A DNA stretch of 64,000 bases, taken from positions 128,001 through 192,000 of IMG/VR virus record IMGVR_UViG_3300045988_154312; one strand, given 5' to 3'. The notes under the pieces were generated by a model. The model saw only the letters and a list, made by a program, of their open reading frames with translations, was not told where the DNA came from and searched no databases. Positions 18,053 through 57,607 of this stretch are shown piece by piece. Numbering within the stretch: position 1 is the stretch's first letter; each line of letters opens with the position of its first letter. Origin of the DNA: a virus. The position numbers were made by a program, and so were the translations under genes.

Positions 18053-18065
18053 ATAAGGAATATAT

Positions 18066-26408: not shown

Positions 26409-26427
26409 CGAGGCTCTTATTTTTTTA
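26397..26427 (+). terminator. Intrinsic terminator
   Basis: aagagcc/ggctctt stem followed by a T7 run. Confidence 0.75.
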
Positions 26428-27176: not shown

Positions 27177-27262
27177 GATCTGTGCTACTACCAAGTCCAG
27201 CTGTATGACTATAAACTATAGCAACTTTGTTCTGTTCGTTACTAGTAAAGGAGGTGAAGTAA

Positions 27263-27649: not shown

Positions 27650-28019
27650 TTCAAGTGTCCATGAAAGGAGGTGATGCTACCATGGACACACGTAAGAGCT
27701 GGCAATCTCGGAATATACTGCCCAGGAGTTGACTTGCCTGGTGGTCTGCTATACGTAGCAGGGATGTGACAACACAAAAGATAGCTTTAGTACGTGCGGA
27801 GTGGGGAAAGCATGATCGCATGCACACAATGATGGCGTACTCAGGCCTAATAAGAGTCTTTCGACAATACAATCTTATTAGGCATCAGGGTGTGAACAGC
27901 AAGTACGATCTTTTGATCGACTCCTGAAGATGATATTAAAGCTGTTCGTTTTTGGAAGTGAAAGTTATGAAAGATGTGTAAGCGTCGTGAGTTAGGACGC
28001 TATATAAATACTAACTCAT

Positions 28020-28063
28020 TCTTTATATAAGGATCTTATATATATAAGGTCTTTATATAAGGA
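28020..28063. repeat. Three abutting AT-palindrome-containing repeats upstream of 28144 gene
   Basis: TCTTTATATAAGGA / TCTTATATATATAAGG / TCTTTATATAAGGA in tandem, about 80 nt before the start codon. Confidence 0.6.
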
Positions 28064-28143
28064 ATATACTTTTTTATTCCTTTGTTTTTTTGGCCCAATA
28101 TTTAAGGGCTTTTAGTTTAGGGCACAAGCCCGAGGAGGTAGCT

Positions 28144-28740
28144 ATGACTACTTTAAATTTAAGAAAATTTTTCTGTTTCGGTATTGAAAACGTGAAAGGT
28201 GAAACCTTCCACGGTACAAAGGAGGCAAAACTTGCCATGAATGTGGCAACCAGCATTATGGAATTTTACCATAATGCTGGTTTTGAAAAAGTCGTTGCAA
28301 CTAATTGTAACGACAACATCTTCGTGAAGGATAGCACTGGCAGACTGCTAGCCTTCGTGACAGAAGTCTGCCATCTCGAGGCGAACGGTTCGAAAGAATA
28401 TAGAACCGCTTATTGGGCATGGAATGAGGTGAAACGCCAAGCCCAAATTGTAGCCGAAAAAGCGGCGGCGAAGAAAGCTTCGGCGAAGGTCGACGCCGAA
28501 GCAAAAGAAGGTCGTGAAGTTGCGACCGAGAAAAATGCTACCATTAAGGGTAGCATCGAGGTTAGATCTCCTCAAAAAAAGACTACCTATTATGCGATTC
28601 GGAAGGGTCGCACAATAGGAATCCTCACCGATTGGGGTGAGGCATCGGAATCCGTTACCGGATATTCCGGTGCGGTATTCAAGAAGTTCAGCGTCCTAAA
28701 GGATGCTGAAGAATATATGAAAGGTGGTGATGACGAATAA
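28144..28740 (+). CDS. Protein with C-terminal RNase H1-type RNA:DNA hybrid-binding domain (no RNase H catalytic domain)
   Basis: SD GAGGAGG. C-terminus TYYAIRKGRTIGILTDWGEASESVTGYSGAVFKKFSVLKDAEEYM matches the Cauli_VI/RNase H1 N-terminal domain pattern. Ala/Lys linker upstream. Confidence 0.7.
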   Translation: MTTLNLRKFFCFGIENVKGETFHGTKEAKLAMNVATSIMEFYHNAGFEKVVATNCNDNIFVKDSTGRLLAFVTEVCHLEANGSKEYRTAYWAWNEVKRQAQIVAEKAAAKKASAKVDAEAKEGREVATEKNATIKGSIEVRSPQKKTTYYAIRKGRTIGILTDWGEASESVTGYSGAVFKKFSVLKDAEEYMKGGDDE

Positions 28741-28778
28741 TCACTCCCTGTTTCGTTGTACTGAGAGGAGGTGAATAC

Positions 28779-29069
28779 GTGAAACAGTACAACTATAAAC
28801 ATTGCCCTGTTGTCAAACTAGCATGTGGTGAAGTCCACGTGCTAAGTGGCGACAAGGGTAGAAAATTCTTGAGCTGGTTCATATACGTCCATAAAGCGGA
28901 CGTGTATGATCCGCTTAAGGAACGCGTCTGGGTGATCGAATACGGTCGCCCAGACGAAATCAAGAAAGAATGTCTCGTTGCTGCTATCCAACCGTATGGC
29001 TGGAAGAACATCGGGACATTCAAAAAGACATACTCTAAATATTTGGAGTATGTCTCCAACAAATCCTGA
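28779..29069 (+). CDS. Hypothetical protein
   Basis: GTG start after GAGAGGAGGTGA. Confidence 0.55.
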   Translation: MKQYNYKHCPVVKLACGEVHVLSGDKGRKFLSWFIYVHKADVYDPLKERVWVIEYGRPDEIKKECLVAAIQPYGWKNIGTFKKTYSKYLEYVSNKS

Positions 29070-29220
29070 GCCAGCATCAGCGCCCGACCACCGAGGCGCT
29101 AGTAATAAATATCGGAATAATATTTCTAATAAAAGCTATCTGTCAAAAATTGATTAATTAAAAACTCGGCAGTAGATAGATAGCTAATAATAAATTAATA
29201 CTGCCGAGGAGGAGTTAAAG

Positions 29221-32200
29221 ATGAAAAAAGTAAATGTTACAACAAATAACACAATAGTTAAAGCTGCAGGCATGGAGCTAGTTGCTCCAACCGTAGCAGT
29301 AGTTATTAAAGAAAATGCACGTGTATCAAAACGCGTGCGTAAATCTTTAGTTTGCAAACGTCGCGAGGAAGTAAAGAAGGCGAAAGCCTTCGCCGCTTAC
29401 GTTACGGCATTAAAGAAAGTAGCTCAAAACGAGCCAGCCGTAGTTCCTAGCGACAATCGCAAGTCGCAGAAAAAACGTGCTGGAAGAGCTCAACAACGCT
29501 GCATCGTTGCGGCAAAGGAGCTGTTGCAACAGCAACGCTCTAATGAGCTGGAGGCACGCAAGCTTCGTCGAGAAAAAGGCCTAGTATTCAAACCGATTGG
29601 TTTGATTACACGCAAAATTTCACCAATCGAAAAAGCTGCTTTATCTGTTAAACCTTCCCAACATTTATTGGAAAGCGTGAATGTATTGGACAATCGTCCA
29701 AGCATTAACGTGCGTTGCGTAGTGGCGCACAAAATGAAGAAATCCTTCATTTATACGATGAAGGTCACATCGATTAATCGGTGTGGAATCTTCAGCGACA
29801 TCGACGTTAAGGCTGGCGCCGTTGTCGAAACAGGAGTCTTCAATGCTAAAGGTAGTATTGAAGATTTCACAAAATCCTTAGTCAAAGACATCTGTCTCGA
29901 TACATTTGTCTTTGACTTTGGCGAGTTAAAAGGAAGCGACATCACGGACGCTTTTGAAGAGCTTGCCGAAATGAAAGGGTTTGCTGATCTATTACCTACA
30001 GCAGCAAGCCCTTCTCAAATTCGCGGCAATCAATTAATTCTTTGCCGTGAAGATCTAGGGTATGCCGTTATTGACCGTGTTCATTTATTGACCGGTAAAT
30101 TAACAGCTGGTAAAGGCGAGTTGTCTGTAGGTAAAGCAGCTAAGCTCTTGACACGAGCAGGACAACCTAACGTAGCTGGCAAAGAATTGAAAATCGACTT
30201 AGATAAAGAATATTTTATCGTAGTCGACTCTTTCAATAAAGGAGATAATTTCGACGGCCAAAGCTTCCACAACCACGAATGGTTCTGTGAAGGCTACGGG
30301 TTGCCGTTCTTCTTTGATACTTATCATCAATCTCGGTTGATGTATATGGCGAAAGAAGGATCTCAACCTTTGAGCCGCGAAGTAATCAATCGCTGGGGTA
30401 AGGAACTTGTTGTTAGCGATAAGGCCTATATTTGCGGCAATAACGCTGCTAAAATTGGCCGTGCCAAAGACTTCAAGAATATTTGGGTCGTTGGCAACGT
30501 TGACGGCGAATGTATTTCTATCCATGACTTGAATGGTTGGAAAGCTTCGCCTGCAGAGCAACAAGCTGCAGAACAGGAAATCTTGAAAGTTATGGCCTTC
30601 ACTCATGAAACTCCTGCAGTAATTGGGTCTCAACCTTTACAATTTACGATGATCGATAAAGCTCATCGTAGTTTAATTGCAGAGTATGCAGTTAAACAAA
30701 AAGTGGCTGAATTTGAACGCAGTATCGAAGCAGTTCTAAAAGGCGGAGATACTGGTTTAGCTATCGATGCAGGCCTTATGGTCGATTACAATAGTTCTAT
30801 TAAGAACAACGTGATCTTAGCATCTAAAATGGCTGCTATTGCCGACAAAGCTGCTAAGATCCTCGAAGGTCCTTCTTTCGAGGGTCAAAAAGAAAGTAGA
30901 TCTTTAAAAGGTGTAGTAGACCCTACATTGCTATTCCTTGACAAAGGTCTATTAAAAGAAGGTGAAGTTGTCGTTTCTGATCGTACATACAAAGCGATGA
31001 AACGAAACGATGGCTTACACCAACTAGTATGCGTGATCTTTAGAAATCCACATGCTGGCGAATTCTACCGTGCACGCATAATTTCTGTTTCTATGTTCAA
31101 GAAACGTATTCTTGGTTTACAAGTTAAATACAACTTGTTCACAGAAATAGAATTAGCAGTTGTTCTTAATGCAGTAAAAATGCTTAACGACAATTGCTTG
31201 ATCACGACAGGTACTGATTATTTCAAATCCTGTTGTGGCGGCAGCGACTATGATACAGATAGCTACGTTGTATGTGTATACGAAGACGCTGCTATCTTCT
31301 CTCATCGCATTGAACGTTCTGTTCATATTCCAAGCGAAATGGGAGCAGACAAGATCGTTGTTTGGAACAGACACGATCAATTGGTTGTCGAAGTGTGGAA
31401 AAATGCCATGAAAGCAACTAAGACAGATGTTGGTAGTTATGCAACAATCATAGCAAAATCTTCGGGCTTACTTGCAGAGCCAGCTGGCAGCGCTGAAGTT
31501 AAAAATGCATTTAAACTTATTAAGGAAGACGCATTAAGCGCTCGAAAAGTTGCTATCGACAAAGAGTTGATTAGCGGCGATGAGGAGGTTCAATATGAAG
31601 GCTTCTATGAAGAAGGCAAAAATATTGGAGAAAAGGATATTAGCAACGAAAAATTGCAAAATATCTACTTGTCTTACGTTCAAAGCCATCTTACTCCTCG
31701 TGAAACAATGAGATGGTTGTTGGATATCTTGTTAACTGGTCCAGCTGCTATGGGTATGATTATCGATATCCCTAAAACACAGCTAACAGTTAATATACCA
31801 TCTGGCGATCTTTTCGAACGCTTGAGCTTAATGCGCAAGAAGTTCCAGCCTAAGATCGCTGAAAACGATGGCAAGTTTGTGGCTGCTACATTTGACTTTA
31901 AAGTTAAAAAATATGTAGCAAGTGCAAATCCATCTACTTGCGGTGGTTTTATTACATCTCTTGGCGGTCAAGAGAGATATTATATCTCCGACGTCTTGTA
32001 TAGAGACATTATGGTACCTACAGCCAAGGCTATGGCCGAAGTTATGAACCGTGTAGCCAAAGAATTAGGTTATAAAGGTCGTAGCGAAGGCGAAAGAAAT
32101 CTTGAAAATAAGGTTGTCGAAATGGGCAATCTTATTCTCGAAGATTGCCGCAAGTCCATTTTCAGCGTCGACGCTGATGGCGTAACTGTCAATAATTTAA

Positions 32201-33690
32201 AGACAGCTTTGCCATACGTCGCTGATATGGTGGCAAGTGCTCTTGGCAAGGGCAACAAATATTCTTTAGCAAAAGAAGCAGGTTTTATCTATAGCGAAAA
32301 CTGTTTCGCTAAGGAATATCTTGATGAATTGGCTGATCAATTCGGCGAAGAAAGATTGTACGTGCCTGTAACTGTTTACGGCCGTGATAACGTTGCATTA
32401 AATATGTACCGCTACCACGACTTCGAAACAGGTCGTGAAGGAGAGTACGTATCTTTCTTCGACGGAATTAGCAGCGACAACTGCTTGTTCTTAAGCGAGA
32501 AGATTTGCGGTCAATTCGAACTTTTCCGCAAAGGAAACACAGCTTACGTCATGAAAGACGTAAGAGATTCCTTTAATGCAGTAGAATTGAAAGGACGAAT
32601 CGCGTTGAGAACTCGTACGGAAAATGCATCCGATGAGATCTTTAAACTCGTTAAGTGGAACGCTTTTGCTCCTGTGGAACAAAAGGCAGAATTCTATTTA
32701 ATGAGCAGTAGCTGTGCTCGTTCTAAAGGAGCTTTGTGGTACGGCAAGAATAAAGAAGCCATTGGTGATGGCTTGTTCATTCTTGCTTCTGGCAGCAATA
32801 AAGTTCCTAAAGGCACACCTATGCAAGTGTGCAAGTTTGATAAAGAAGGCGGTAAATACGTCTTCAATCAAACTGGCGAAGGTAAATTTGCTATTAAGGT
32901 GAACATTGATGAGTTGTGCTTCAACTATATCGATGAAAACAAAGATAGCAAAAAGAACACTATTCTCTTGTTGATGACAAAACAAGAGTCTTGTGTTGTA
33001 TTGCCAGATCCAGAAAAACCTTTAGTAGAAGAAGTTAACGAAACTCCTACTGTTGAAGTCGTAGCAAAGGCCGGAGACTCTGCTACGAAGAGCGAATGGT
33101 TAAGCATGGATAACTATAAGCGCGAAGAAGGCGCGATGGTTATCTGTGCGACTGGCCATCGTTCAGATAAATTAGGTTGCGGCAAGGGAGATGATTGGAG
33201 CTCCAAATCTCCTAAGCTACAACCTGTTCGCGATAGAATCGAAGCGAAACTTCGTTCTATCCTCGATTTTCAAGTCCTAGCGGGCGAAAAGAAATTTGAG
33301 TTGATCAGCGGTATGGCGTTAGGCGTTGACCAACTGTTCTTTAGCGTAGGGAATCAGTTACGCAAAGAATATGCTGAGCAAGGTATTACAATCGTATTAA
33401 CGGCTGCAGTGCCTTGCATTGAGCAAGACGGCATATGGAAAGACGATTGCAAAATCTCATATGCTGCTATGCTTAAGGCAGCTGACAAAAAAGTTCGTAT
33501 TTCTAATAAGAAGTACGAAGACGATAAAGGCTGCATGCAGCGCAGAAACCGTTTCATGGTAGACAATGCCGATATGGTATTGGCTTACCATGATGGAAGC
33601 GAAGGCGGTACTAAGAACTGCATCGACTACGCAAAGAGCATCGGTGCAGTAATAGAGAACGCCTTCGAGGGTCCGGAGGAAAATAAATAA
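29221..33690 (+). CDS. Giant protein with an RdRP/YonO-like two-barrel polymerase signature (DxDxD) fused to a C-terminal YpsA/DUF1273 SLOG domain
   Basis: SD [17 protein letters not shown] (aa 608-614), then [14 protein letters not shown] (D676/D678/D680). The last ~185 aa align motif by motif with B. subtilis YpsA. Basic N-terminal ~130 aa. Confidence 0.85.
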   Translation: [1489 protein letters not shown]

Positions 33691-33713
33691 CCCTCCGGGT
33701 CCCCCCTTCTACG
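33690..33713 (+). promoter_or_regulatory. Hairpin (accc-TCC-gggt) + CCTTCTACG element directly after the polymerase stop codon
   Basis: The same CCTTCTACG 9-mer follows a GC hairpin at 36709-36738, also directly after a stop codon. Confidence 0.4.
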
Positions 33714-33912
33714 TTAACCGAAGTAAGACGTGGGAGGAACGACAATTACATATGAAGATACAGGAGTATATTTATCATTCTACGATAGATGTGCTCTGGC
33801 ACTGCTGTGCCGAAATTTTATTTGAGATTTATAAGGGATTTTCCCTGCCGGGGGCCTCCTGACGGAGAGTCCCCTGCGGGGCAAGTCCTATATAAGTCGA
33901 AGTTGTGTTTCC

Positions 33913-33933
33913 GGACTCCGTCCCGAAACATTC
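33913..33933 (+). promoter_or_regulatory. Hairpin-TCC-GAAA motif copy (variant)
   Basis: ggac-TCC-gtcc followed by cGAAACATTC. Confidence 0.35.
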
Positions 33934-34003
33934 TTTGAAGCAGTTATGCATATATATGCGTAACTGTCTTTAGTGAAGATATTGGGCGTTCTGCGATAGA
34001 AAT

Positions 34004-34025
34004 GTCGCTCCGCTCCGAAATCATC
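34004..34025 (+). promoter_or_regulatory. Hairpin-TCC-GAAATC motif copy (degenerate stem)
   Basis: gtcgc-TCC-gctcc-GAAATCATC. The flanks match the consensus but the stem is weak. Confidence 0.3.
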
Positions 34026-34480
34026 TATGAGGAATTTTTATTCCTTATCGTCTTGGACCACGGAGACGTTAAATACACGCTGAGTGGTCGTCTTTGGGGG
34101 AAGCCGGACGTTAAAGGAGCTTCCCGATTTTTATAATATTATATGTGGACGGTCCATATTGAGTTATGGCGTGAGTTCGTGGTCACAGCCGTTCACATAT
34201 AATATTATCTTTCAGCTGAGCGGTAGACCCGCCGATATCGTCCTAACTTTGTCCTTAGTGGCAGTCATAGGAAGTAGAATCGGCGGGACTACAAAATGCT
34301 TCCGGTGTGGCTTATTATACACGACCGGGGGGACCGTCAGGAGTATATTTGTTACTTCTGGCGGTATATAAATTATCTATTAATGGTTAGTGGCGACCGT
34401 CCACTTTAAAATACCGGCAGGAGAAAAAGATAAAGTTGATTTAAGTTTTAAAATCATACGATAAGTATGATATCTGTAAT

Positions 34481-34771
34481 ATGTTCTTAGACTTTCTTAG
34501 CGGAAGTCTAGATTTTAAAGAATCTTCGTTAGAAGCAAAAGTAACGAATTTGTTCTTTGAAGAAAACGGAAATCTTCTAATTAATGTATCTGCTATGGCG
34601 GATACATCAATAGGAAGATTAAAATCTCTTTTACAATTCAAATTCACAGGAGAAGTTTTGTCCTGCGAGTTTGAAGGTATTGACTACACTGTTCCCCATG
34701 CACAAATCATGGGAGAATTGGTAGATGCAATAGAAAAATTGTGTCTACCTATGTATGAGGAGGAAGAATAG
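34481..34771 (+). CDS. Hypothetical protein (possibly N-terminal part of a TAG-interrupted gene)
   Basis: 96-aa ORF with no SD. Same frame as 34844..35155 and separated from it only by TAG 34769-34771 plus open codons. Confidence 0.4.
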   Translation: MFLDFLSGSLDFKESSLEAKVTNLFFEENGNLLINVSAMADTSIGRLKSLLQFKFTGEVLSCEFEGIDYTVPHAQIMGELVDAIEKLCLPMYEEEE

Positions 34772-34843
34772 ATAAAGACCATCGATTTCAAATATAACGC
34801 AGAAAAATACTGCGTTAAAAATTTCTTAGACGATTCTGGATTA

Positions 34844-35155
34844 TTGTCCAGAAAAGTCTGGTTCGATGACCGTGAGGGGTGTCCTCACGACCGAAAGGAC
34901 CTCAGTATTGTTTCTGTTGTAGATAACATGGCAACATGTGCCTACACAGAGTTAGACAGGAATATCGGTGAATTTGTCGAGCTCACCGTAGAAGTTCCTG
35001 TCGGAAATCTTCACCTTCGCGGTTCAGAAGCCGTTGAGGTGGAATATGAACGTATCCTTTCTACTATAGATGAAGAAGCCGCGGCAATAATCCGCGGCTT
35101 AGTGTGGGAGAAGGAAAAAGATGCAGCTGTTGCCGGCTATAACGGCTGCATCTAA
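34844..35155 (+). CDS. Hypothetical protein (start uncertain)
   Basis: Only a TTG start and no SD. The frame is open back to the TAG at 34769. Followed by a strong terminator. Confidence 0.45.
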   Translation: MSRKVWFDDREGCPHDRKDLSIVSVVDNMATCAYTELDRNIGEFVELTVEVPVGNLHLRGSEAVEVEYERILSTIDEEAAAIIRGLVWEKEKDAAVAGYNGCI

Positions 35156-35171
35156 TTTAATAGTTTATTCT

Positions 35172-35204
35172 AGAGAGCTCCATATGGGGCTCTCTTTATT
35201 TTTT
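35172..35204 (+). terminator. Intrinsic terminator
   Basis: agagagc/gctctct stem, then ttatttttt. Confidence 0.7.
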
Positions 35205-35222
35205 AATAGGAGGCATACTGTT

Positions 35223-35552
35223 ATGTTAAACCGCACTGAACATTCTGTAAAAATTTATAATACCATTGGCGTAGAAACGCCAGATATGGTATTAGAACAA
35301 TACAAAGGGGAACCTATTAGAGTTTCCTGCGAATCTCGTAAAGTCGATACCATCGAAGGTATTGATATTTATGAAAATATTTATGGTGAGGTCACTGGCC
35401 TCCCAGAATTTGCGGAAGGCGTATACTACGTCGTTTCCGCTATGGTGCGTCAAGCACTACCCGGGAGAAAAGACTTACTTTCTCCTGGTCAATTAATTAG
35501 GAATGAGGCCGGACAACCAATAGGTTGCCTAGGTCTTGTTCGCAACAGTTAA
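35223..35552 (+). CDS. Hypothetical protein
   Basis: SD TAGGAGG, then ATG at 35223 (MLNRTEHSVKIYN...). Terminator downstream. Confidence 0.65.
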   Translation: MLNRTEHSVKIYNTIGVETPDMVLEQYKGEPIRVSCESRKVDTIEGIDIYENIYGEVTGLPEFAEGVYYVVSAMVRQALPGRKDLLSPGQLIRNEAGQPIGCLGLVRNS

Positions 35553-35559
35553 GTATTTT

Positions 35560-35609
35560 AGCTTTAGTCGTAGGTATATTATATATCTATGGCTAAAGCT
35601 TTATTTTTT
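35560..35609 (+). terminator. Intrinsic terminator
   Basis: agctttagtc/ggctaaagct stem (one G-T pair), then ttatttttt. Confidence 0.7.
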
Positions 35610-35966
35610 GTTAATAAATATTATAATTATACTATTAATAGAGACATTGATGGCGTAATTATGATATTTATATTTTTTTTATAAATATCGTCCGGCGACA
35701 GGTGTCCGCCCACATTGTTTCGGCACTCACGAAATCACGTTTTTTTATAATATAACGTGAGTGTTATGTGGGCGGTACCGTATTTGCCTTCCGACGCTTG
35801 CGACGTTGGGCTCTGGGCCCGCGTTGCTTCGTCTCTGGTCGGCAAATACTCACCTGTCGCCTCTATATGTATTCCGGCAGTGTCCCTTCGGGTCGTATGT
35901 ACGGAATATATTTTTTTCTTATGTATGCGATCCTGCTGTGGTCGTTTACTAGTGTGTTTTTTATAT

Positions 35967-35987
35967 GACGCTCCGCGTCGAAATGTT
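35967..35987 (+). promoter_or_regulatory. Hairpin-TCC-GAAAT motif copy
   Basis: gacgc-TCC-gcgtc-GAAATG, 77 nt upstream of ATG 36044. Confidence 0.5.
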
Positions 35988-36043
35988 TTATGAGGGTATT
36001 TTGCCCTCAGTATTTTATTTGTTTCATAGAGGAGGAAATTGTC

Positions 36044-36421
36044 ATGAAAAAGATTACTGTTATTAGAAAAAACGGCGTAATTGCCGATGTTGTAGTAAGT
36101 GGCACTGAAGAGCAAGGTAAAAACTTGTTTTTAGACCATCCGTTGTTCAAGAATTATTTCGTTCGGGAAGCTAGAGTATTTGCCCCAGAAACCGAATGTT
36201 GGCGGTTCAGCGTTCCTAACCATGACGACATGGAAGTGTCTGTAATCAGAAGCTCCATGACTTATGGAGGAGCAGAAGGGCTATTCGAGTTGGCGATGCT
36301 TCGCAATGATAGATGCATATATGATACGCCTATCACCAACGATGTAGTTGGTTGGCTAGATGAACAAGATGTACTGGACATCTTAGAAGATGTTCAACGC
36401 ATCTACGGAGAGGAGGCATAG
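36044..36421 (+). CDS. Hypothetical protein
   Basis: SD AGAGGAGGAAA, then ATG 36044 (MKKITVIRKNG...). Confidence 0.65.
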   Translation: MKKITVIRKNGVIADVVVSGTEEQGKNLFLDHPLFKNYFVREARVFAPETECWRFSVPNHDDMEVSVIRSSMTYGGAEGLFELAMLRNDRCIYDTPITNDVVGWLDEQDVLDILEDVQRIYGEEA

Positions 36422-36422
36422 C

Positions 36423-36710
36423 ATGAAATTTATTCTTTTCGGTGAAGCTATGCCGAAGACAGAATTTAATAGCCCAGACTGCTACCATGCGTTACAATAT
36501 GTTTTGAACACCTTCTTCAAGGATTGTGTCGTTGCAGAAAATGTGACATCCTTAGAAGAAGATGTCGTAGCGGTCTGTATTCGTTCGTGGGCAAACATCA
36601 GTTCTGAAGAAGAACCGGTATCCTATGAACGTCATCCTGCATATTTATTGGACGAAGGGAGATATAACAAATTATCTCCTAGTACTCTAGCAATCATTGC
36701 TGGAGATTAG
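36423..36710 (+). CDS. Hypothetical protein
   Basis: ATG 36423 directly after the upstream TAG. SD GGAGAGGAGG lies inside the upstream gene end. Confidence 0.6.
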   Translation: MKFILFGEAMPKTEFNSPDCYHALQYVLNTFFKDCVVAENVTSLEEDVVAVCIRSWANISSEEEPVSYERHPAYLLDEGRYNKLSPSTLAIIAGD

Positions 36711-36738
36711 CCCCCCGCCGGGGCTAAACCTTCTACGG
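36709..36738 (+). promoter_or_regulatory. Hairpin + CCTTCTACG element directly after a stop codon
   Basis: agcccc-ccgcc-ggggct, then aaaCCTTCTACGgg. Confidence 0.4.
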
Positions 36739-36829
36739 GATTACTATGTCGATATTTACGGCATGGTGCTCCTGTTGAAGAATATATATAGTCTTATGTA
36801 CGGCTATGTACATTTCTCTATGTATCACA

Positions 36830-36853
36830 CGCCCCCGCCGGGGCGAAATCTTC
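36830..36853 (+). promoter_or_regulatory. Hairpin-GAAATC motif copy (4-nt loop variant)
   Basis: cgcccc-cgcc-ggggcg-AAATCTTC, 73 nt upstream of ATG 36904. Confidence 0.5.
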
Positions 36854-36903
36854 TTTGAGGGGTTCTTCCCTCATATTCGTCGTTCTGTGAAGGAGGAGAA
36901 AAT

Positions 36904-37068
36904 ATGTTTATCACAGGATTATATAATTATACGTTATTAACTCCAAATGGAGCTTATATTTCCGTACAAAGTACGGACGGTGTGTTTGATATTCTTCGTG
37001 AGAACGAAGGGTGTCAATTTATATCTAAAACATTAGTTGGTTATCAAAGTTGTGCAATGGCTGATTAA
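36904..37068 (+). CDS. Small hypothetical protein (54 aa, below ORF-track cutoff)
   Basis: SD AGGAGGAGAAAAT-ATG. MFITGLYNYTLLTPNG...AMAD. A hairpin follows the stop. Confidence 0.55.
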   Translation: MFITGLYNYTLLTPNGAYISVQSTDGVFDILRENEGCQFISKTLVGYQSCAMAD

Positions 37069-37153
37069 TGTAGAGGTGCTGGTAAGAGATTGCCGGCACC
37101 TTGCTTTAATTTAGTATTTGATATTTCATTATAAACATGAGGAGGTATACATC

Positions 37154-37300
37154 ATGTTAAAGAAACAATTTATTGGTTGGTTAAACGATTTTTACGCGGA
37201 AAATCCTATCACTTTCCGCATCTTTTGGTTTTTGGTGGGCTGGTTTATCGGCTCCACTGTCAAGATGGCTGTACTACAACATCGTCTAGCAAAACGCTAG
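37154..37300 (+). CDS. Small membrane protein (48 aa)
   Basis: SD GAGGAGG, then ATG 37154. Hydrophobic FRIFWFLVGWFIGSTV segment. Confidence 0.55.
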   Translation: MLKKQFIGWLNDFYAENPITFRIFWFLVGWFIGSTVKMAVLQHRLAKR

Positions 37301-37339
37301 CGGTGTAATGATTTCGCTGGAGGGTTAACTTTTGAAGTT

Positions 37340-37360
37340 TCCCCTCCGGGGCGAAATCTC
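37340..37360 (+). promoter_or_regulatory. Hairpin-TCC-GAAATCTC motif copy
   Basis: cccc-TCC-gggg-c-GAAATCTC, followed by ~340 nt without an ORF. Confidence 0.5.
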
Positions 37361-37698
37361 CTGTGACCTTCTCATTAATAGTAGGTCATGTTTTATTTCA
37401 TATAAAGCTTTATATGGAATGCTATGAGGTGTATGTTAATGTACTCATAATACCTCCCTTTAATAGATGCTTAACAATCTGATATGTATCTCATAGCATT
37501 CGATATAAGGTTTTATATACCTTAAAGTAAAGCCGTAGACTTAAAAAGTCTTAAGCTGTAGAAGCCGTTGGGACCGGCTCAAAAGAATAAGGACTTTTAG
37601 TCAAACTTCTTAATAAGATGATTTAATATCATCTTTAAAATTGTATAGTCAAATGTTTTATTTGTTATACAAAGTTCCTAACCTTACGGGAGAAGACA

Positions 37699-37719
37699 GC
37701 CCCTCCGGGGCGAAATCTC
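37699..37719 (+). promoter_or_regulatory. Hairpin-TCC-GAAATCTC motif copy
   Basis: gcccc-TCC-ggggc-GAAATCTC, 219 nt upstream of ATG 37918. Confidence 0.5.
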
Positions 37720-37832
37720 TCATGGGGCTTTCTGTGTGGAGGTCCCTTTCATACTTTTCTCCTCTCTCTCGCGGTGAGAAACTGCGGGAGATATGAGCGT
37801 TAGATGAGCGTTGACTTATCTAGCGTTGATAT

Positions 37833-37868
37833 CTCTTGCATGTGTGTTGATGCAAGAGGAGATTTTTT
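37833..37868 (+). terminator. Terminator-like hairpin inside the 5' leader of the 37918 gene
   Basis: ctcttgca/tgcaagag stem, then gagattttttc, about 50 nt before the start codon. Confidence 0.4.
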
Positions 37869-37917
37869 CACCACGAGAAGCTCAGTCGTGGTACTTTCAA
37901 AGAAAGGAGACATTTAT

Positions 37918-38625
37918 ATGTCTAAATTTGCAAACGTTGTATGTTATTTGTTCGGCTCCAACTCTAATGGTTGGGCACAAATGTTATCCGCTGTTGTAGA
38001 GGGTGTTCCTGGTGTCCGTGACACCAAACCTGTCAGAATTGAAACAGCAGGTCAATCTTATGTGGGTATGGGCTGTAATGCCGTAGCCCAAATCTTGGAG
38101 TTGTTCGCCAACAAGTCCGTTAATTACGGACAGTTCACTGGTGAAGTAGTGACTAGCGACGCTGTCGCTATCCGCTGTTATTCTATCATGAAAGCTATTA
38201 AAGATGGCTTAACGCCAGCTAAAGTAGCTGACCATGTTATGAAAGAAGCGGATACAGCTGAAGACCGCGAGCAGTTTAAGCGTCTTGCTATGGCAATCAA
38301 AGACTGTCAAAGCCAGGGTGTGCGTCTTCGCATTAGCCGTCTTTCCCAAGAGCACAGTTATGCTCTTGAGGTGCCAGAAGGAGTAGAACTCCAAGCTGGC
38401 GACGTGGTCAAATTTGACCGCGGTGTATCCGAAGACGGTGTCAAACTTGCGTATGGAGTGCAATCCAGCTACGCTTATGAAGTGGCTGAGGTCAATGATG
38501 AGCTTAAAGCTCTCAGACCTAAAAACACTCCAAATAGCAAGCACAGAATGGCGTGCGTTAACGCCACTCTTAACTTGATTCGCGAAATCAAGGCAGAAGA
38601 GGTCTCCGCAGAAGACCTCATCTAA
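37918..38625 (+). CDS. Hypothetical protein
   Basis: SD AAAGGAGA, then ATG 37918 (MSKFANVVCYLFG...). The upstream in-frame extension lacks an SD. Confidence 0.65.
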   Translation: MSKFANVVCYLFGSNSNGWAQMLSAVVEGVPGVRDTKPVRIETAGQSYVGMGCNAVAQILELFANKSVNYGQFTGEVVTSDAVAIRCYSIMKAIKDGLTPAKVADHVMKEADTAEDREQFKRLAMAIKDCQSQGVRLRISRLSQEHSYALEVPEGVELQAGDVVKFDRGVSEDGVKLAYGVQSSYAYEVAEVNDELKALRPKNTPNSKHRMACVNATLNLIREIKAEEVSAEDLI

Positions 38626-38629
38626 CATT

Positions 38630-38656
38630 GGGGGCATTTTGCCCCCTTTATTTTTA
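38630..38656 (+). terminator. Intrinsic terminator
   Basis: gggggc-atttt-gccccc, then tttattttt. Confidence 0.8.
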
Positions 38657-38678
38657 TTAGTAAAGGAGGGAGCCCCTG

Positions 38679-39167
38679 ATGGCTACTTTTAATATTAAGC
38701 ATTCCAACCAATCTATTCTTGACTATATGAGAGAAAAGATTACGGTTGAGTATAATGGCTCTGTCGAAGATGTCGACGGAGGCATTAAAGTTGAGGTTGA
38801 TGACAATCACCTTAAAGACATTACGGACGCATTCAGCCGTGCGAAACGTAATGCCATGTTCTCAGGCTGGGTAAAATCTGCCACTAAGTTTGTTGGCAGA
38901 CAAGCTGACACTGTGAAAGATGTCGGCATCGGTGCAGTTGGCATTAGCGCCAAAGGTATCTTTGGTGGTCTTAAAAAGACTGCTGAAGTAGCTATGGGTG
39001 CTACTGCTGTAATCGTAAACGAGGGTAAAGAAGCTTGGAAAGAAGCTTCTGTGAGCGATGAGCTCAGAAACCTCAAGAAATCCTTCGGTAGTACTGGCAA
39101 TGATACAGAAGGTATCGAAATCATTAAGGAAGATACTGTAGAAAATACTGCTGGCGAAAGAGCCTAG
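38679..39167 (+). CDS. Hypothetical protein with Gly/Ala-rich hydrophobic core
   Basis: SD AAAGGAGGGAG. VGIGAVGISAKGIFGGL...AMGATAVIV segment. Confidence 0.65.
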   Translation: MATFNIKHSNQSILDYMREKITVEYNGSVEDVDGGIKVEVDDNHLKDITDAFSRAKRNAMFSGWVKSATKFVGRQADTVKDVGIGAVGISAKGIFGGLKKTAEVAMGATAVIVNEGKEAWKEASVSDELRNLKKSFGSTGNDTEGIEIIKEDTVENTAGERA

Positions 39168-39367
39168 CAGTATAGACGATTGCTATTAATCGTCGGTAAA
39201 TATTAATAGCAGTTGCTCTAGTTGTCAGGGGCGAGTGTAGGTGACAACCTTATTCTAGTTATTTAGGATATTCCTAACTAGAACTGATAAGATAACTATG
39301 AATATCCTTATTATACAGTAATTTTATGCTTTGGACTGTATAATAGAATAAAAAGCACTAGAAATAG

Positions 39368-39420
39368 GGTTTAGTCTAGAGGAGCAGGGTTTGCTCTTCT
39401 AGGCTAAACCTTTATTTTTT
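39368..39420 (+). terminator. Long-stem intrinsic terminator
   Basis: 18-bp stem ggtttagtctagaggagc/gctcttctaggctaaacc (two G-T pairs), then tttatttttt. Confidence 0.7.
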
Positions 39421-39648
39421 CTTATGTTGAATATACATTTAGGTAATACTGTTGTTACAGCGTTAGCTAAATGTATATTTTTTTATAATTCGCGAAAAGC
39501 ATACCGCCTGAGTACGTATGGCGTAATTCGGGTGTCAGCTTTAGCGAAAGTCCATTTTTTTGGACACTTTTGGCAGGGGCTAATTTTTTTAGTGACTGCT
39601 TTTTTTTATCGGAACGATTACGTTTCCGATCGCCAAGAATTATTAAGG

Positions 39649-40443
39649 AGCGAGCGTCAGCGAGCGAATGTATATTTGTTTGTATATAAGCCCGAGCGAG
39701 CGAAGCGAGCGGAGGGCGTTTATTAGGTTCTCTGTGTACTCTCTTCCAAGAGAGTAGTTTTGTTTATTATTTGTATTGTAAGGCGAGCGAAGCGAGCCGT
39801 TAATATTCTTTGTTTACTTTCTTCTTAAGAAAGTAAGTATTGTATTATTTATTAGTAGTAGTTCTCTGCTATCTCTCTTGTAAAGAGAGTAGTTATGTAT
39901 TATATATATTTATATATGTAGATTCTCTGTTATCTCTCTTCTCAAGAGAGTAATTAGTTATTTATATATATATGTATCATAATAGTATTAACGCAGCGAG
40001 CGAAGCGAGCGGAGTATCTGTTATGTATAGTATATAGTTATTCCCGACGAGTGAGGAGGATACGACGAGCGAGTTGTAGTGTCCTAGCGTAAGCGACGAT
40101 CATAAGAGTATATATTTATATATTATATATAGGGCGAGCGAAGCGACCGTCAGGGAGCGGAGCGAGCATAGTATTATTATATAATATATTATAGGGAGCC
40201 TCAGCGACCGGAGTATATATATAGTCTTATAGGAGCTAGATAGGCAATAAGGATTGATAAGGATTTAGTATATCGTGATATAGTATATCGTATTATACTA
40301 TAGTAGTATATAGTCGATCCTTATTTACAGTAAGAAGGAAAAATCGGCCTTGAATTTCTGGAACCGAAGGTTTTAAAAAATTACGATATTTTCCGCCCGG
40401 GAGTATCTGTATCATATATATAGTAGGGAGCGTTAGCGACCGA
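39649..40443. repeat. Dispersed GC-rich repeat family (GCGAGCGAAGCGAGCGGAG and AGGGAGC-N3-AGCGACCG variants)
   Basis: Copies at ~39693, 39782, 39993, 40132, 40195 and 40425 embedded in TATATA-rich DNA. Confidence 0.7.
39728..39952. repeat. Four TTCT(C/T)TG-flanked hairpin repeats with covarying stems
   Basis: 39728-39757 (tactctctt/aagagagta), 39807-39837 (tactttctt/aagaaagta), 39862-39892 and 39923-39952. Confidence 0.75.
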
Positions 40444-41524
40444 TGGTATCATATATATACGTTAGTATATATTAAGTATTTTCTGCCGTCGGTATTTTGT
40501 TAAAAGAGAGACTAGTATATGTAATAATAGCCGCTTAGGATATTATGGTTTATATATAATATGTTTTTAGTTAATGTTTTTACTGTACATATTATATGTA
40601 CAGGTATTAAAAACTTTTAGGGTGGGATATCTTATAATAATATTGAACGTCAGTGAAATGTTATTATAGATTTAAATCTTATATTAGATATAATTTTAAT
40701 GAGAGCTATTAATGTGAAGAATAGGGAGCGCCGCGAATCTATTCAGCTATTAAAATTCTTAGTCGACACGATAGTATAGTATGGTAGAGATCGTGTCGAT
40801 AGGTTACGAGTGCTAACGAGTTATATGTAGAATTCGTTATTAAGAATAGTGTTATCGATGTAGCTTGCGAAGAGAAATAGTATTCTTTAGAATTCGTAAC
40901 AATATATCTAATGCGTTTGTGTGTCTATCGATATATATCAAGAAAATATATACCGACGTGTGCGAATGGAGTTTACGAAGTGTGGCACGCAATCAATTTT
41001 TATATCTCGTAACGAAGCCGTTTACGGTTCGTATTAGTATTATATATAGCGAAGCGAACAATGTAAGCGGAATGTAACTATATAATATTTAATACGAATT
41101 ATACCAAAGTATTAGAAGTTAGTAAGCGTCTAATAAGTAGGTGGTTTTTTGTTTGGGATCCGCCGTTATCTTAGTATTTCATTTACTAGCTAAGGTATTT
41201 AAAAGTCCCTTGCGTTTATTTTAGTCGAGTTATTATTTAATATATATTATATATAATAATAACGAAGAGCCATTACTGTTAAGAATGGATAGTAGACGAA
41301 ATTGGGAACGGGCCCCAATAATAGTTATTAGATTTTTAATATAATAACGTTAATGGTTCGTCGTGTACGATCCTCTGCGAGTTGTTTATCTTCACAGCAG
41401 ATTAATTACTATTAAGAGTTTGGAGCATTTTTAAAATGGGACAACATTTTGTTAGTATTCTTTGTCTATATTATATATATAAAAAAAAGACCCCCATGGG
41501 GCCGTTATATATTGTTTTGTATCT

Positions 41525-41561
41525 GGAGCGGTGAAACTTCGTTTCACCGGTATATTACTCA
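41525..41561 (+). promoter_or_regulatory. U1: GGAGC-[9-bp stem, TTC loop]-GTATATTACTCA element
   Basis: cggtgaaac-ttc-gtttcaccg with invariant flanks. One of three tandem copies. Confidence 0.45.
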
Positions 41562-41684
41562 TGCTTGAGTAAGAGTTATTTAAAAAATAAAAAAATATGT
41601 CAGAAAATAAAAAAGACCCCGAAGGGCCGTTTTTATATAATTATTTTTTTAATGTTCAGCTGTCGCTATCAATAATAAATTATT

Positions 41685-41722
41685 GGAAGCGGTGTAACGT
41701 AGTTACACCGGTATATTACTCA
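41685..41722 (+). promoter_or_regulatory. U2: GGAAGC-[9-bp stem, GTA loop]-GTATATTACTCA element
   Basis: cggtgtaac-gta-gttacaccg. The stem differs from U1 by compensatory changes. Confidence 0.45.
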
Positions 41723-41846
41723 CTTTAGATGCTTAGTTGTCAAAAAATAAAAAAATATTTTTTATTTAATTATATATATAGCAAACAATAAAAAAAAACA
41801 GCCTTAGATTTTTATATCCAAGACTGTTTTGTGTGTGTAAATTTCA

Positions 41847-41881
41847 GGAGCGGTGAACTGCGTTCACCGGTATATTACTCA
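41847..41881 (+). promoter_or_regulatory. U3: GGAGC-[8-bp stem, TGC loop]-GTATATTACTCA element
   Basis: cggtgaac-tgc-gttcaccg. Confidence 0.45.
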
Positions 41882-41985
41882 TATTAGTATATCATTAATT
41901 AATTTTGTAAAAATAATTAAATATTCATTATTAATGCATAATTGAAAGTACGGATATTTTTAAGTAAAAAAAATACAAAAAATTA

Positions 41986-42011
41986 AAGTCAGATAATATC
42001 TGGCTTTTTTT
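41986..42011 (+). terminator. Intrinsic terminator-like hairpin
   Basis: aagtcagat-aat-atctggctt, then a T run. Confidence 0.5.
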
Positions 42012-42633
42012 AATTTTGGTGTCGCCTGCGGTATATATAGGAAACAATAAAACATAATATACAGAATATGTATATTTATGAATACGAGCTTTTTTCAAAA
42101 GCGTTCTTCGACCATAGCTTACTCCGAAAAGTTTAAATGAAACGTCGTAAGCGTAGTAGTGACGCGGGTTTTTAATAATTTTATGTATAAGATTATTTAG
42201 GGTTAGGAACGATCGATATAAAAATTGCTCCCTTAACAGTTCTTATTCATCTCTTATATATACTATATATATAATATAATAATATTTATTTTTTTAAATA
42301 GTCCGCCGTCTCCTCACGAGCGCCAACACCAGTTATTTATTGCTTTATATACTATATATATAGGTAAAGCTATGGCTTTGTTCGTGCAGAAGATACGGCT
42401 CTTGGACTATAGGTGATACTGACTATACAGTATGCTCCCTTGGGGGGTGGGGGGAGTCAGTAACACTCTCAAGTTAGTTATTTTTATCTAAAAACTAATA
42501 AAAATCGTTTATGGCTATTAAAATGATCATAAGTCCGCAACACTTTAAAATCTCCCTTTAACAGCTAAAAACTAGTATTTTTTAAAATATCAAGTTGCTT
42601 TTATTTGCTATATTTTAGCCTATTTTCATATTA

Positions 42634-42689
42634 GATGTATTTGGTCCGATGTATTTGGTCCGATGTATTTGGTCCGATGTATTTGGTCA
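42634..42689. repeat. 4 x 14-bp perfect tandem direct repeat (iteron-like)
   Basis: GATGTATTTGGTCC x3 plus GATGTATTTGGTCA, followed by ~250 bp of almost pure TATA-type DNA. Confidence 0.9.
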
Positions 42690-43015
42690 CATAATATATT
42701 TAATTAGCGTAGCGTATTACTATATATATCATTAATCTGTTATAGCAACTTTATTAGTACTTAATAGCTGTATATAGTCATATATATAGTTTATTGTTAT
42801 ATTATATATATGGTTTAATATATATTATTAGTATTAAGTTATATTATATATTGCTATACTATGTATATATAATAGTATTAGTATATATGTATTATGTTAT
42901 TATATATTGTATTAAGATATATAATTAAGAGAAACTATTAAATGGAAAGATGCGGGCGATTTTGTATATGGTATTTTATATCAAGTCGTTCACGGATCCG
43001 TATATGGATTTTTAA

Positions 43016-43204
43016 ATGTATTGTATTTTGTCGGAGGAAAATATTATTTTAATAATATCAGCAGTAATTATGTTTTTACTATATAAATTAGGCAATAAAT
43101 TATTTAAAGAGCACTATTATAACAGTCGATTAAAAACTATATATTTAATTTTATGTTTTATAATAGTATGCATATTAATTAGACTATTATATTTATATAT
43201 ATAA
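43016..43204 (+). CDS. Small hydrophobic protein (uncertain)
   Basis: 62-aa ORF with two hydrophobic stretches and no clear SD. Confidence 0.35.
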   Translation: MYCILSEENIILIISAVIMFLLYKLGNKLFKEHYYNSRLKTIYLILCFIIVCILIRLLYLYI

Positions 43205-57538: not shown

Positions 57539-57586
57539 TAAGTTAAGCTAGGGCTGTCACTAATTTACCACCATTTACTTTACGGT

Positions 57587-57607
57587 TGGGCTCCGCCCCG
57601 AAATCTC
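57587..57607 (+). promoter_or_regulatory. Hairpin-TCC-GAAATCTC motif copy
   Basis: gggc-TCC-gccc-c-GAAATCTC in a GC-rich intergenic patch, 66 nt upstream of ATG 57654. Confidence 0.5.

Follow-up and report, generated by a model that had tools for sequence, protein, structure and literature searches.

The stretch of DNA analysed here (64,000 nucleotides, referred to below as the window) belongs to a jumbo phage of about 230 kb from human mouth metagenomes, in which all genes lie on one strand. Between late-type genes on one side and a run of small ORFs on the other, the window contains a non-coding block (39.65-42.3 kb) that is 80-98% conserved and dense in other repeats and hairpin families. 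The three hairpin units under study sit in this block, where terminator-like sites are also concentrated (10 in 39-44 kb, against 1.7 expected). Directly upstream of the first terminator-like site (T1) and of unit 1, the plus strand carries the OTKONC RNA (Rfam RF03053, 41289-41459; 138.5 bits, E 4e-24), which scores above the gathering threshold in seven of eight related loci. OTKONC shares the phage clade and the non-coding block with the units and ends 70 nt before the hairpin of unit 1, but it is a separate multi-stem RNA and the units fall outside its model. When the Rfam covariance models were compared with the units, no match was obtained at the gathering threshold or at E<=5, the adjoining OTKONC alone being matched.

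The array consists of three perfect hairpins in tandem, with stems of 9, 9 and 8 bp and loops of 3 nt, each followed by the identical 12-mer GTATATTACTCA (hairpin plus 12-mer at 41529-41561, 41690-41722 and 41851-41881). Unit 1 (41529-41567, plus strand) is composed of the stem CGGTGAAAC (41529-41537), the loop TTC, the stem GTTTCACCG (41541-41549), the 12-mer at 41550-41561 and a conserved NNTTWR tail; its folding energies as DNA are -8.8 kcal/mol (template strand) and -9.9 (plus strand), with z about -5. Unit 2 (41690-41728, plus strand) reads CGGTGTAAC-GTA-GTTACACCG at 41690-41710, a loop of the flipped (GTA) type, with the 12-mer at 41711-41722, while unit 3 (41851-41887, plus strand) reads CGGTGAAC-TGC-GTTCACCG at 41851-41869, with the 12-mer at 41870-41881. 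The distance from unit to unit is 161 and 159 nt. Reading of the sequence thus confirmed the three hairpin units with the stems and loops originally predicted, and the 5' flanks GGAGC or GGAAGC are present as described. No other perfect C/G-closed triloop hairpin in the window is as long as these; the exact 12-mer occurs three times in the 64 kb, always at this array and on the plus strand only, and the 11 matches with one or two mismatches are no more than expected by chance. An AT-rich conserved body (41882-41984, plus strand) extends from unit 3 to the last terminator, T4, and would yield an RNA of about 125 nt if unit 3 fires rightward. Small ORFs inside the units show no conservation, the ATG at 41597 being missing in relatives, and a second hairpin 3' of the motif is found in some variants only and is not significant overall.

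A search of related genomes, which the original prediction had called for, found the element in 26 related contigs, with two or three copies each (most often three), and it is therefore not a recent local duplication. Each genome (181-236 kb) has it at a single locus, and it is nearly invariant even in those relatives whose version of the 1489-aa protein discussed below is only 67-69% identical. Outside these relatives, GenBank phage DNA contained nothing similar to 40800-43200, and a cultured relative is not available; scanning the genomes of 185,579 species for an exact 16-mer returned 38 chance matches that point to no host; a metagenome scan with a loose pattern returned 120 chance matches, none with a hairpin; and an endolysin search provided no clue to the host.

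Eight distinct hairpins were found across the 26 related loci, with stems of 8-9 bp and loops always of 3 nt, all of them fully Watson-Crick paired. As MAFFT misplaced the gaps between 8-bp and 9-bp stems, pairs were counted directly from the sequences. The variants differ by compensatory double changes (CGGTG/CACCG to CGATG/CATCG; GAAAC/GTTTC to GTAAC/GTTAC) and by a symmetric 1-bp deletion in the stem, so that the paired stem changes and invariant flank proposed from the window are supported and extended by further compensatory variants. No G·U pair is present in any of the eight, against 22 G·U among 164 pairs in the neighbouring terminators, which argues for structure at the level of DNA (a cruciform) and not of RNA. 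The coding-strand loop is TTC, TGC or TAC in six of the eight variants, so that the template strand reads C-GAA-G, C-GCA-G or C-GTA-G triloops; the commonest single variant carries GTA on the plus strand and hence TAC on the template. The 3' flank, predicted to be identical in all units, is so within the window, but among the relatives about 9 of 49 unit variants have ACGCA, ACGTG or similar in place of its ACTCA end, which leaves the hairpin plus GGTATATTAC as the invariant core. To the right of each motif the sequence is conserved, whereas conservation is lowest in the spacer that leads from a terminator to the following hairpin and that also varies in length; this pattern fits the order promoter, RNA body, terminator and spacer. 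Hairpin types are also shuffled between units among genomes, as with units 2 and 3 of the window compared with relatives.

The runs of A, GC hairpins and T tracts noted around the units are real and were located as four elements, T1 to T4, of which a terminator scan assigned T1-T3 to the minus strand and T4 alone to the plus strand. T1 (41481-41506, minus), lying 22 nt after the OTKONC RNA, consists of A8 and GACCCCCATGGGGCC; on the minus strand it forms a strong intrinsic terminator that includes a G·U pair and T8, and on the plus strand a conserved GTTATATAT tail comes after it, resembling the 'GC hairpin + TTAT' terminators of phiKZ polymerases (PMC10914365). T2 (41609-41634, minus), identical in 23 loci, is built of A6, GACCCCGAAGGGCC and GTTTTT, which on the minus strand gives a C(UUCG)G loop, a G·U pair and T6, and on the plus strand a weak stem followed by U5. 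T3 (41790-41835, minus) comprises A9 and a stem of 11-15 bp; in most variants the minus strand has two or three G·U pairs and folds at -12 to -13 kcal/mol, versus -3 to -4.5 for the plus strand. Of 10 variants, six favour the minus strand, three favour the plus strand and one is neutral. Finally, T4 (41985-42014, plus), invariant in 22 loci, reads AAAGTCAGAT-AAT-ATCTGGCTTT followed by T7, with a U·G pair on the plus strand. Since T1-T3 have their better folds and U-runs on the minus strand, some minus-strand transcript probably has its end immediately left of each hairpin.

In addition to the array, the window holds a second hairpin family, NNNC-TCC-GNNN followed by CGAAATC[TA], in which a hairpin precedes a conserved 3' flank, as in the three units. 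Its seven copies in the window, one of them at 57585-57612, all lie on the coding strand, in gaps between called ORFs and upstream of plus-strand genes, in positions resembling 5'-UTRs and often with another hairpin after them. The stems of this family covary, and most copies carry the N4 heptamer GCGGAGC on the template strand; mini-hairpin heptamers of the form GCGNAGC are enriched (15 against 2.6 expected).

The sole polymerase-like gene within the roughly 84 kb examined (the 64-kb window and about 20 kb of flanks, out of about 230 kb) lies at 29221-33690 on the plus strand, 7.8 kb upstream of the units and after the tail and lysin genes. Its product of 1489 aa, a candidate cognate polymerase, carries an RdRP/QDE-1-type signature (FRNPHAGE and CCGGSDYDTDSY, aa 672-683, in the pattern RNPxxxGE ... 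GGxDYDxDxY) and a C-terminal YpsA/SLOG domain, and has a Pfam match of 27 bits. A profile search of 1.84 billion proteins retrieved this clade and a few fragments only, the contigs of the latter being too short or unrelated. A profile search of PDB sequences gave no match, hhalign detected no profile similarity to gp66 of phi14:2, tblastn against GenBank phages matched the C-terminal SLOG domain only, and an AlphaFold model of the polymerase core (13-sequence alignment) was unusable, with a pLDDT of 30.6. A giant T7-like virion RNA polymerase was looked for in the same 84 kb and none was found. Of the enzymes with which the 1489-aa protein may be compared, phi14:2 gp66 is packaged in the virion and transcribes early genes, its promoter motif being not known; gp66 and QDE-1 favour single-stranded DNA templates, and the promoter of P23-45 gp96 is an AT-rich linear motif. 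A link between the 1489-aa protein and the hairpins would be plausible.

The closest precedent for such units is coliphage N4 (Schitoviridae), whose P1-P3 are early promoters, grouped before the early genes at the genome end that enters first and read by a giant T7-like virion RNA polymerase; initiation there needs extrusion of the hairpin (supercoiling, SSB) and starts about 11 nt from the loop centre. At slightly less than even odds (about 0.45), we infer that the three units are DNA-hairpin promoters of the N4 type that fire rightward and may be used by the RdRP/QDE-1-like 1489-aa protein. The inverted repeat would extrude as a DNA hairpin of the template (minus) strand with a stable C(GNA)G triloop, and a phage-encoded RNA polymerase would recognise both the hairpin and the invariant single-stranded stretch next to it (template 5'-GTAATATACC), transcribing rightward along the plus strand. 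If the start lies 11 nt from the loop centre, as in N4, it would fall on the GG of GGTATATTAC; the purine that closes the conserved ACTCA-NN-TTWR block is the alternative. Transcription would give short RNAs (about 65-130 nt) of conserved AT-rich sequence, read-through to the small early-type genes from 43016 onwards, or both, with T1-T4 serving as two-way terminators that insulate the tandem units. The confinement of two or three copies to one non-coding locus, the near invariance of the element in relatives with a diverged RdRP-like protein, the polymerase-like gene 7.8 kb upstream and the phiKZ-like plus-strand tail of T1 also count in favour of promoters. A more far-reaching version, in which a single-chain two-barrel polymerase (RdRP/QDE-1/crAss-gp66-like) would read extruded hairpins, both families being promoters that converge on the C(GNA)G logic of the unrelated T7-like N4 virion polymerase, is rather unlikely when taken as a whole.

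The original prediction had read the plus strand as three short transcription units, each running from a hairpin promoter to a terminator. The geometry and polarity resembling N4, the second hairpin family and the pattern of conservation speak for that reading; the terminators do so in part only, as T1-T3 are better explained on the minus strand and T4 alone is clearly a plus-strand terminator. The minus-strand preference of T1-T3 in nearly all variants is in fact the main complication for promoters firing rightward. Moreover, the strong plus-strand T4 and 1 kb of non-coding DNA lie between unit 3 and the first ORF, the conserved flank and the stems are longer than those of N4, the GTA-loop type has its GNA loop on the wrong strand, the ACTCA end is replaceable, as stated above, and the assignment of the polymerase is weak.

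The same terminators are the starting point of the foremost alternative, a serious though improbable one, offered in the original prediction as a second reading (units of about 70 nt), which takes the units as three paralogous genes for minus-strand sRNAs of about 50-110 nt, with the hairpin at the start of or within the RNA, a variable linker and an end at T1, T2 or T3. The invariant TGAGTAATATAC and a TTnAnTAAC located 13 nt upstream would then represent either a promoter of unusual type or a single-stranded stretch at the 5' end, and the RNAs could serve as decoys for a protein or pair in antisense with plus-strand transcripts. The strand calls of the terminator scan agree with this, as do the G·U pairs of the minus strand that turn into A·C mismatches when the plus strand is folded (5 of 5 T1 variants, T2 in its 23 loci, 6 of 10 T3 variants), the C(UUCG)G loop of T2 and the conserved T6-T9 runs. 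Furthermore, the minus-strand RNAs fold as clean two-hairpin sRNAs (z -2.7 to -5.3), and the minus strand has a promoter-like layout of conserved block, fixed 13-nt variable spacer and conserved block. That layout does not contain an acceptable sigma-70 promoter: TTGAnn lies 18-20 nt from any TAnnnT, within the '-35' block it is TAAC that is best kept, and the 'spacer' contains a conserved CTAA. A sigma-70 promoter on the minus strand was consequently ruled out on spacing and conservation. Besides, the linker, which would form the body of the RNA, is the least conserved and most length-variable part, whereas the would-be upstream region is well conserved; the hairpin lacks G·U pairs in all eight variants, unlike the adjoining true RNA hairpins; there is no matching Rfam family, and the 12-nt 'seed' has no target beyond chance. 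This explanation also leaves the plus-strand T4 and the gene-associated second hairpin family unaccounted for.

Transcription of the plus strand could also be retained without promoters, if the hairpin plus GGUAUAUUAC were an RNA element (a 5' stem-loop, a processing site or a protein-binding site) in transcripts that start elsewhere, for instance by read-through from OTKONC. OTKONC just upstream and the plus-strand T4 do support plus-strand transcription of the block, and the second family lies in positions resembling 5'-UTRs, often with another hairpin after it. We consider this quite unlikely, as the stems are perfectly Watson-Crick paired with zero G·U, the transcripts would have to read through T1, and an invariance of 30 nt exceeds what is typical of an RNA stem-loop free to covary. 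C-G-closed three-base loops are, in addition, a hallmark of DNA hairpins and are not especially stable in RNA.

About as improbable, and if anything slightly more so, is a DNA-level role other than transcription, as priming or origin hairpins, packaging or terminal-repeat signals, or recombination sites in a genome-end or origin region. The whole 39.65-42.3 kb block is conserved and rich in repeats and hairpins, the GCGNAGC heptamers are in excess, several metagenomic contigs end about 0.4-1.4 kb from the units, and the shuffling of hairpin types between units would be compatible with such signals; on the other side, the interleaved terminators, the N4-like polarity and the gene-associated family point to transcription, and the units are not linked to any replication or packaging protein motif. 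Finally, mimicry of host CRISPR repeats (solitary repeat units or RNA anti-CRISPRs, each a small RNA) is very improbable: the conserved unit of about 34-37 nt, with an internal hairpin and a single-stranded handle, is repeat-like in size and shape and each copy has its own terminator, but the 38 matches of the 16-mer scan were isolated and single, without any repeat array, and a spacing of about 160 nt is not array-like.

To our knowledge, the only phages so far shown to use DNA-hairpin promoters are the N4-like ones, with their T7-type virion polymerase. If the promoter reading is true, structure-dependent promoters would reach beyond one phage family, into an uncultured oral jumbo phage, with a design that has in common with N4 the stem, the 3-nt loop and the loop polarity, and the N4 heptamer in the sister family. 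We know of no promoters for the crAss-like gp66, the relatives of YonO or the ancestors of the eukaryotic RNAi polymerases, a class that likes single-stranded DNA; should the RdRP-like protein read the hairpins, they would provide the first promoter rule for its polymerase class, a concrete and testable one. The orphan Rfam RNA OTKONC gains a context as well, in what would be the control region of this phage clade.

A comparison was also made with T7-group promoters. Unit 2 matches their consensus TAATACGACTCACTATAG at 13 of 18 positions by eye, including ACTCAC-T-TAG, but only one of the three units fits well, ACTCA varies in relatives and a T7-like polymerase was not seen in the 84 kb; the match may be due to chance in AT-rich DNA. 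The two-barrel phage polymerases (crAss-like phi14:2 gp66, SPbeta YonO, P23-45 gp96) and QDE-1 share their signature with the 1489-aa protein, although gp66 differs from it in showing no detectable profile similarity.

The comparison with N4 was made on P1-P3 as read directly from the N4 genome (NC_008720), where the coding strands are GTTGC-TTC-GCAAC (P1), AAGAAGC-TCC-GCTTCTT (P2) and AAGCTGC-TCC-GCAGCTT (P3), with template loops GAA, GGA and GGA. The N4 polymerase reads a template-strand GNA loop with a sheared G:A pair, and stem bases may change provided that pairing is kept (PMC4496689), as they do in the units described here. The units differ in their stems (8-9 bp against 5-7 bp, and not GC-rich near the loop, where they read AAC/GTT), in the GCGGAGC heptamer, which is absent from the three units and present in the second family, in the extent of the conserved flank (10-18 nt against about 4 nt, conservation in N4 being limited to -17..+1), in having one hairpin type with a flipped loop, in the terminator that flanks each unit and is stronger on the opposite strand, and in belonging to a jumbo phage of about 230 kb with no giant T7-like virion polymerase in the part examined. 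Both systems, on the other hand, have three copies, ahead of the early genes in N4 and of a run of small early-type ORFs here, each made of perfectly paired inverted repeats around a 3-nt loop with C-G closure, and a conserved single-stranded stretch on the 3' (coding-strand) side. A coding-strand TNC loop that gives GNA on the template is found in N4 P1-P3 and in six of the eight variants described here (the C-TTC-G of N4 P1 being that of unit 1). The design most resembles a known kind, the N4 hairpin promoters, and the polymerase-like gene in view is of another family.

Three tandem elements, each made up of a perfect hairpin and an invariant 3' motif, lie on the plus strand at about 41.5-41.9 kb of the window. 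The hairpins read CGGTGAAAC-TTC-GTTTCACCG in unit 1 (41529-41549), CGGTGTAAC-GTA-GTTACACCG in unit 2 (41690-41710) and CGGTGAAC-TGC-GTTCACCG in unit 3 (41851-41869). Directly 3' of each stands the 12-mer GTATATTACTCA, which has three exact copies in the window, only at these units and only on the plus strand; inexact copies elsewhere in the window show no excess over shuffled sequence. The hairpins are the longest perfect C/G-closed triloop hairpins within the 64 kb, and their folding as single-stranded DNA gives -7.8 to -9.9 kcal/mol (z about -4 to -5). The original prediction had described these units exactly, as re-reading of the sequence showed, and the three-unit array is confirmed, far beyond chance.

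The same prediction had called for the element to be sought in related genomes, where it is indeed present: an exact 17-mer search of IMG/VR led to 20 related contigs, and the neighbourhoods of diverged copies of a 1489-aa protein, encoded at 29221-33690 of the window, to six further loci. Most related loci carry three units, spaced 131-195 nt apart, and in contigs of 181-236 kb the element is confined to this one locus. It is almost invariant even in a sub-clade where identity of the 1489-aa protein falls to 67-69%, and the block at 39.65-42.3 kb keeps 80-98% identity across 11 genomes, so that this non-coding control block is better conserved than the protein. Since human oral metagenomes contain identical or near-identical 1489-aa proteins on contigs 221-234 kb long, the source is an uncultured jumbo phage; DNA and protein searches found no cultured relative among GenBank phages.

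The window is AT-rich and its credible genes all lie on the plus strand; among them are genes for replication (a DnaE-type polymerase and RecJ), for tail and baseplate, and for an amidase. The gene for the 1489-aa protein is followed by several small genes, by about 3.3 kb of largely non-coding DNA (39727-43015) and, after 43015, by a long series of small ORFs without known families. The G+C content steps up to 38-43% at 26000-40000, against 23-33% elsewhere, over a region spanning the 1489-aa gene and many small genes and gaps. An IS605 OrfB/TnpB (Cas12f-like) gene also belongs to the phage genome, about 7 kb past the right end of the window (flanking contig 17143-18234).

Within the non-coding block, the Rfam RNA OTKONC (RF03053) is matched at full length on the plus strand at 41289-41459 (138.5 bits, E 4e-24; gathering score 141.4), 70 nt before the hairpin of unit 1. 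In relatives it exceeds the gathering threshold in 7 of 8 cases, with scores of 149-158 bits, and this orphan motif evidently derives from this phage clade. At 39724-39962, another repeated structured unit consists of four hairpins in tandem whose stems covary (TACTCTCTT/AAGAGAGTA and TTACTTTCTT/AAGAAAGTAA among them); GCGAGCGAAGCGAGC precedes some of these hairpins. At 40109-40442, TATA(T)AGGG(A/C)G..AGCGACCG occurs three times, each after TATATA runs; these repeats are similar to the TATAGGGAG of the T7 promoter start and could be promoters of another class. The 14-mer GATGTATTTGGTCC, in four perfect tandem copies at 42634-42689, looks like a set of iterons or protein-binding sites; the surrounding 42.3-42.9 kb are poorly conserved and also contain the ends of several metagenomic contigs. 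Finally, there is an excess on the plus strand of GCGNAGC, a mini-hairpin heptamer of the d(GCGAAGC) type (15 copies, 2.6 expected), with 8 of the 15 in 39.7-43.3 kb. The heptamer is found mostly within AGCGAGCGAAGCGAGCGGAG repeats (39650-41070), and its GNA loop is on the plus strand, in opposite polarity to that of the three units and of the second hairpin family described below.

As regards the level at which the unit hairpins act, 49 distinct unit variants contain eight different hairpins, all perfectly paired. The difference between GAAAC/GTTTC and GTAAC/GTTAC is a compensated transversion, that between CGGTG/CACCG and CGATG/CATCG a compensated transition (CGATG being present in every CATCG unit), and the 8-bp hairpin has lost one base on each side. 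There is no G·T or G·U pair in the eight hairpins; in the terminator hairpins a few bases off, 22 of 164 pairs are G·U. A cruciform or DNA hairpin demands pairing on both strands, and an RNA hairpin is expected to tolerate wobble. The pairing is thus suggestive of action as a cruciform or DNA hairpin but does not prove it, as the variants share common ancestry. Where a unit has an ACTC core (45 cases), ACTC[AT]-NN-TT-W-R closes the conserved block, and a 7-nt variable stretch and GTTAnT come next. As ACTCA is replaced (by ACGCA, ACGTG and others) in about 9 of the 49 variants, sometimes with a new small triloop hairpin arising, the invariant core is the hairpin plus GGTATATTAC.

A second hairpin family, noticed while listing intergenic gaps, has the pattern NNNC-TCC-GNNN, with a GC stem of 4-5 bp and a TCC loop (once GCC), and then CGAAATC[TA]. 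Its seven copies in the window (34008, 36836, 37344, 37703, 43227, 57591 and 63520) are all on the plus, coding strand, intergenic and upstream of genes, with none in the replication or structural gene part. The stems covary (CCCC/GGGG, GGGC/GCCC, GGAC/GTCC, GTGC/GCAC), one orthologous site having switched from GCCCC/GGGGC to GGGC/GCCC, and the element is often trailed 4-12 nt later by another variable hairpin. In a distant sister lineage (Logan SRR22071710, short contig 1-5924), where three separate ORFs (404, 437 and 354 aa) make up the RdRP-like polymerase, CCC-TCC-GGG hairpins and GCGAGCG-like repeats lie in a 660-nt non-coding stretch just downstream of these ORFs. The clade therefore uses elements of the type hairpin plus 3' flank in the orientation of its genes, and by analogy units 1-3 should fire rightward.

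The most likely function of the units, with a probability of roughly 0.45, is that of an array of DNA-hairpin promoters of the coliphage N4 type reading rightward, an interpretation that the second hairpin family strengthens. By the N4 ruler, transcription would start on the GG right after the stem. Within a unit, conservation is lowest and length most variable (7 to about 60 nt) in the spacer that leads from a terminator to the following hairpin. Conservation is high rightward of each motif, above all in the approximately 100 nt from unit 3 to the terminator-like hairpin T4; this pattern fits the order promoter, RNA body, terminator, spacer.

The main rival, serious but less probable than the promoter array, is that the units are minus-strand sRNA genes. 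Terminator-like sites number 10 in 39-44 kb (1.7 expected), and those bracketing the units, T1 (41481-41506, directly downstream of OTKONC), T2 (41609-41634, with a C(UUCG)G loop) and most variants of T3 (41790-41835), are clearly better on the minus strand, where their G·U pairs correspond to plus-strand A·C mismatches and T6-T9 runs are conserved; at T4 (41985-42014) the preference is reversed, the plus strand having a U·G pair and T7. Termination of some minus-strand transcript immediately to the left of each hairpin is therefore very probable, and the units folded as minus-strand RNAs resemble tidy two-hairpin sRNAs. However, no credible sigma-70 promoter was found for such genes (TTGAnn lies 18-20 nt from any TAnnnT), the best-conserved bases are misplaced for one, and the putative RNA body is the least conserved part. 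A motif TATATATAG[CG]AAACAATAAAA, kept in relatives, is found just before T3 (41771-41795) and just after T4 (42031-42055), and on the minus strand (TTTTATTGTTTSCTATATATA) could be a leftward promoter. On the plus strand, conserved GTTATATAT follows T1 and GTTTTTATAT follows T2; given that GC hairpins with a TTAT behind them serve phiKZ polymerases as terminators (PMC10914365), the interleaved elements may be two-way terminators, which on the plus strand would stop the OTKONC and unit RNAs and on the minus strand would bar leftward transcription. This does not amount to an explanation of the minus-strand optimisation of T1-T3. The other alternatives are less likely: an RNA element on the plus strand, a DNA signal unconnected with transcription, or mimicry of a CRISPR repeat. 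No family among the Rfam covariance models matches the units themselves.

For the promoter array, the 1489-aa protein is a weak candidate as cognate polymerase, because its Pfam RdRP match (PF05183) reaches 27 bits, structure prediction yielded no usable model and no profile similarity to solved structures or to gp66, the RNA polymerase of the crAss-like phage phi14:2, was detected. It contains FRNPHAGE and CCGGSDYDTDSY, which correspond to RNPxxHPGD and SGGDxDGDxY, signatures shared by eukaryotic RdRPs and QDE-1, and its gene is the only polymerase-like one in the window and about 20 kb of flanks, placed after tail and lysin genes like the virion polymerase genes of N4 and crAss-like phages. 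Single-stranded DNA is transcribed by enzymes related to it in fold, and no motif is known for the early promoters of gp66. When 1.84 billion representative proteins were searched exhaustively, essentially nothing outside this clade was recovered. The protein is fused to a C-terminal YpsA/SLOG (DprA-like) domain and a protein with an RNase H1 N-terminal (RNA/DNA-hybrid-binding, Cauli_VI) domain is encoded just upstream (28090-28740); both features would be in keeping with an enzyme whose templates are single-stranded or hybrid. The flanks differ between units 1-3 and the second family; the readers may be two enzymes, or one enzyme and a factor.

For comparison, the left end of the N4 genome was fetched and its perfect triloop hairpins listed. 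The early promoters P1 (GTTGC-TTC-GCAAC), P2 (AAGAAGC-TCC-GCTTCTT) and P3 (AAGCTGC-TCC-GCAGCTT) have these hairpins on the coding strand, each directly followed by TT(A/G)G, and the template strand therefore reads C-GAA-G or C-GGA-G, its loop forming a sheared G:A pair that is read by the polymerase (PMC4496689). The second family shares with P2 and P3 the heptamer GCGGAGC on the template strand of most copies. In six of the eight unit hairpins the coding-strand loop is TTC, TGC or TAC, so that the minus strand reads C-GAA-G, C-GCA-G or C-GTA-G, and the conserved single-stranded stretch lies on the same side of the hairpin as in N4. The GTA type departs from this loop pattern, being the exact flip of the TAC type, and both orientations occur on the same stem. 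The array falls outside the strict N4 promoter family, as its flank differs, the GC heptamer is absent from the units and no T7-like virion polymerase is seen in the window and about 20 kb of flanks; the units nevertheless appear to work in the same way as the N4 promoters.
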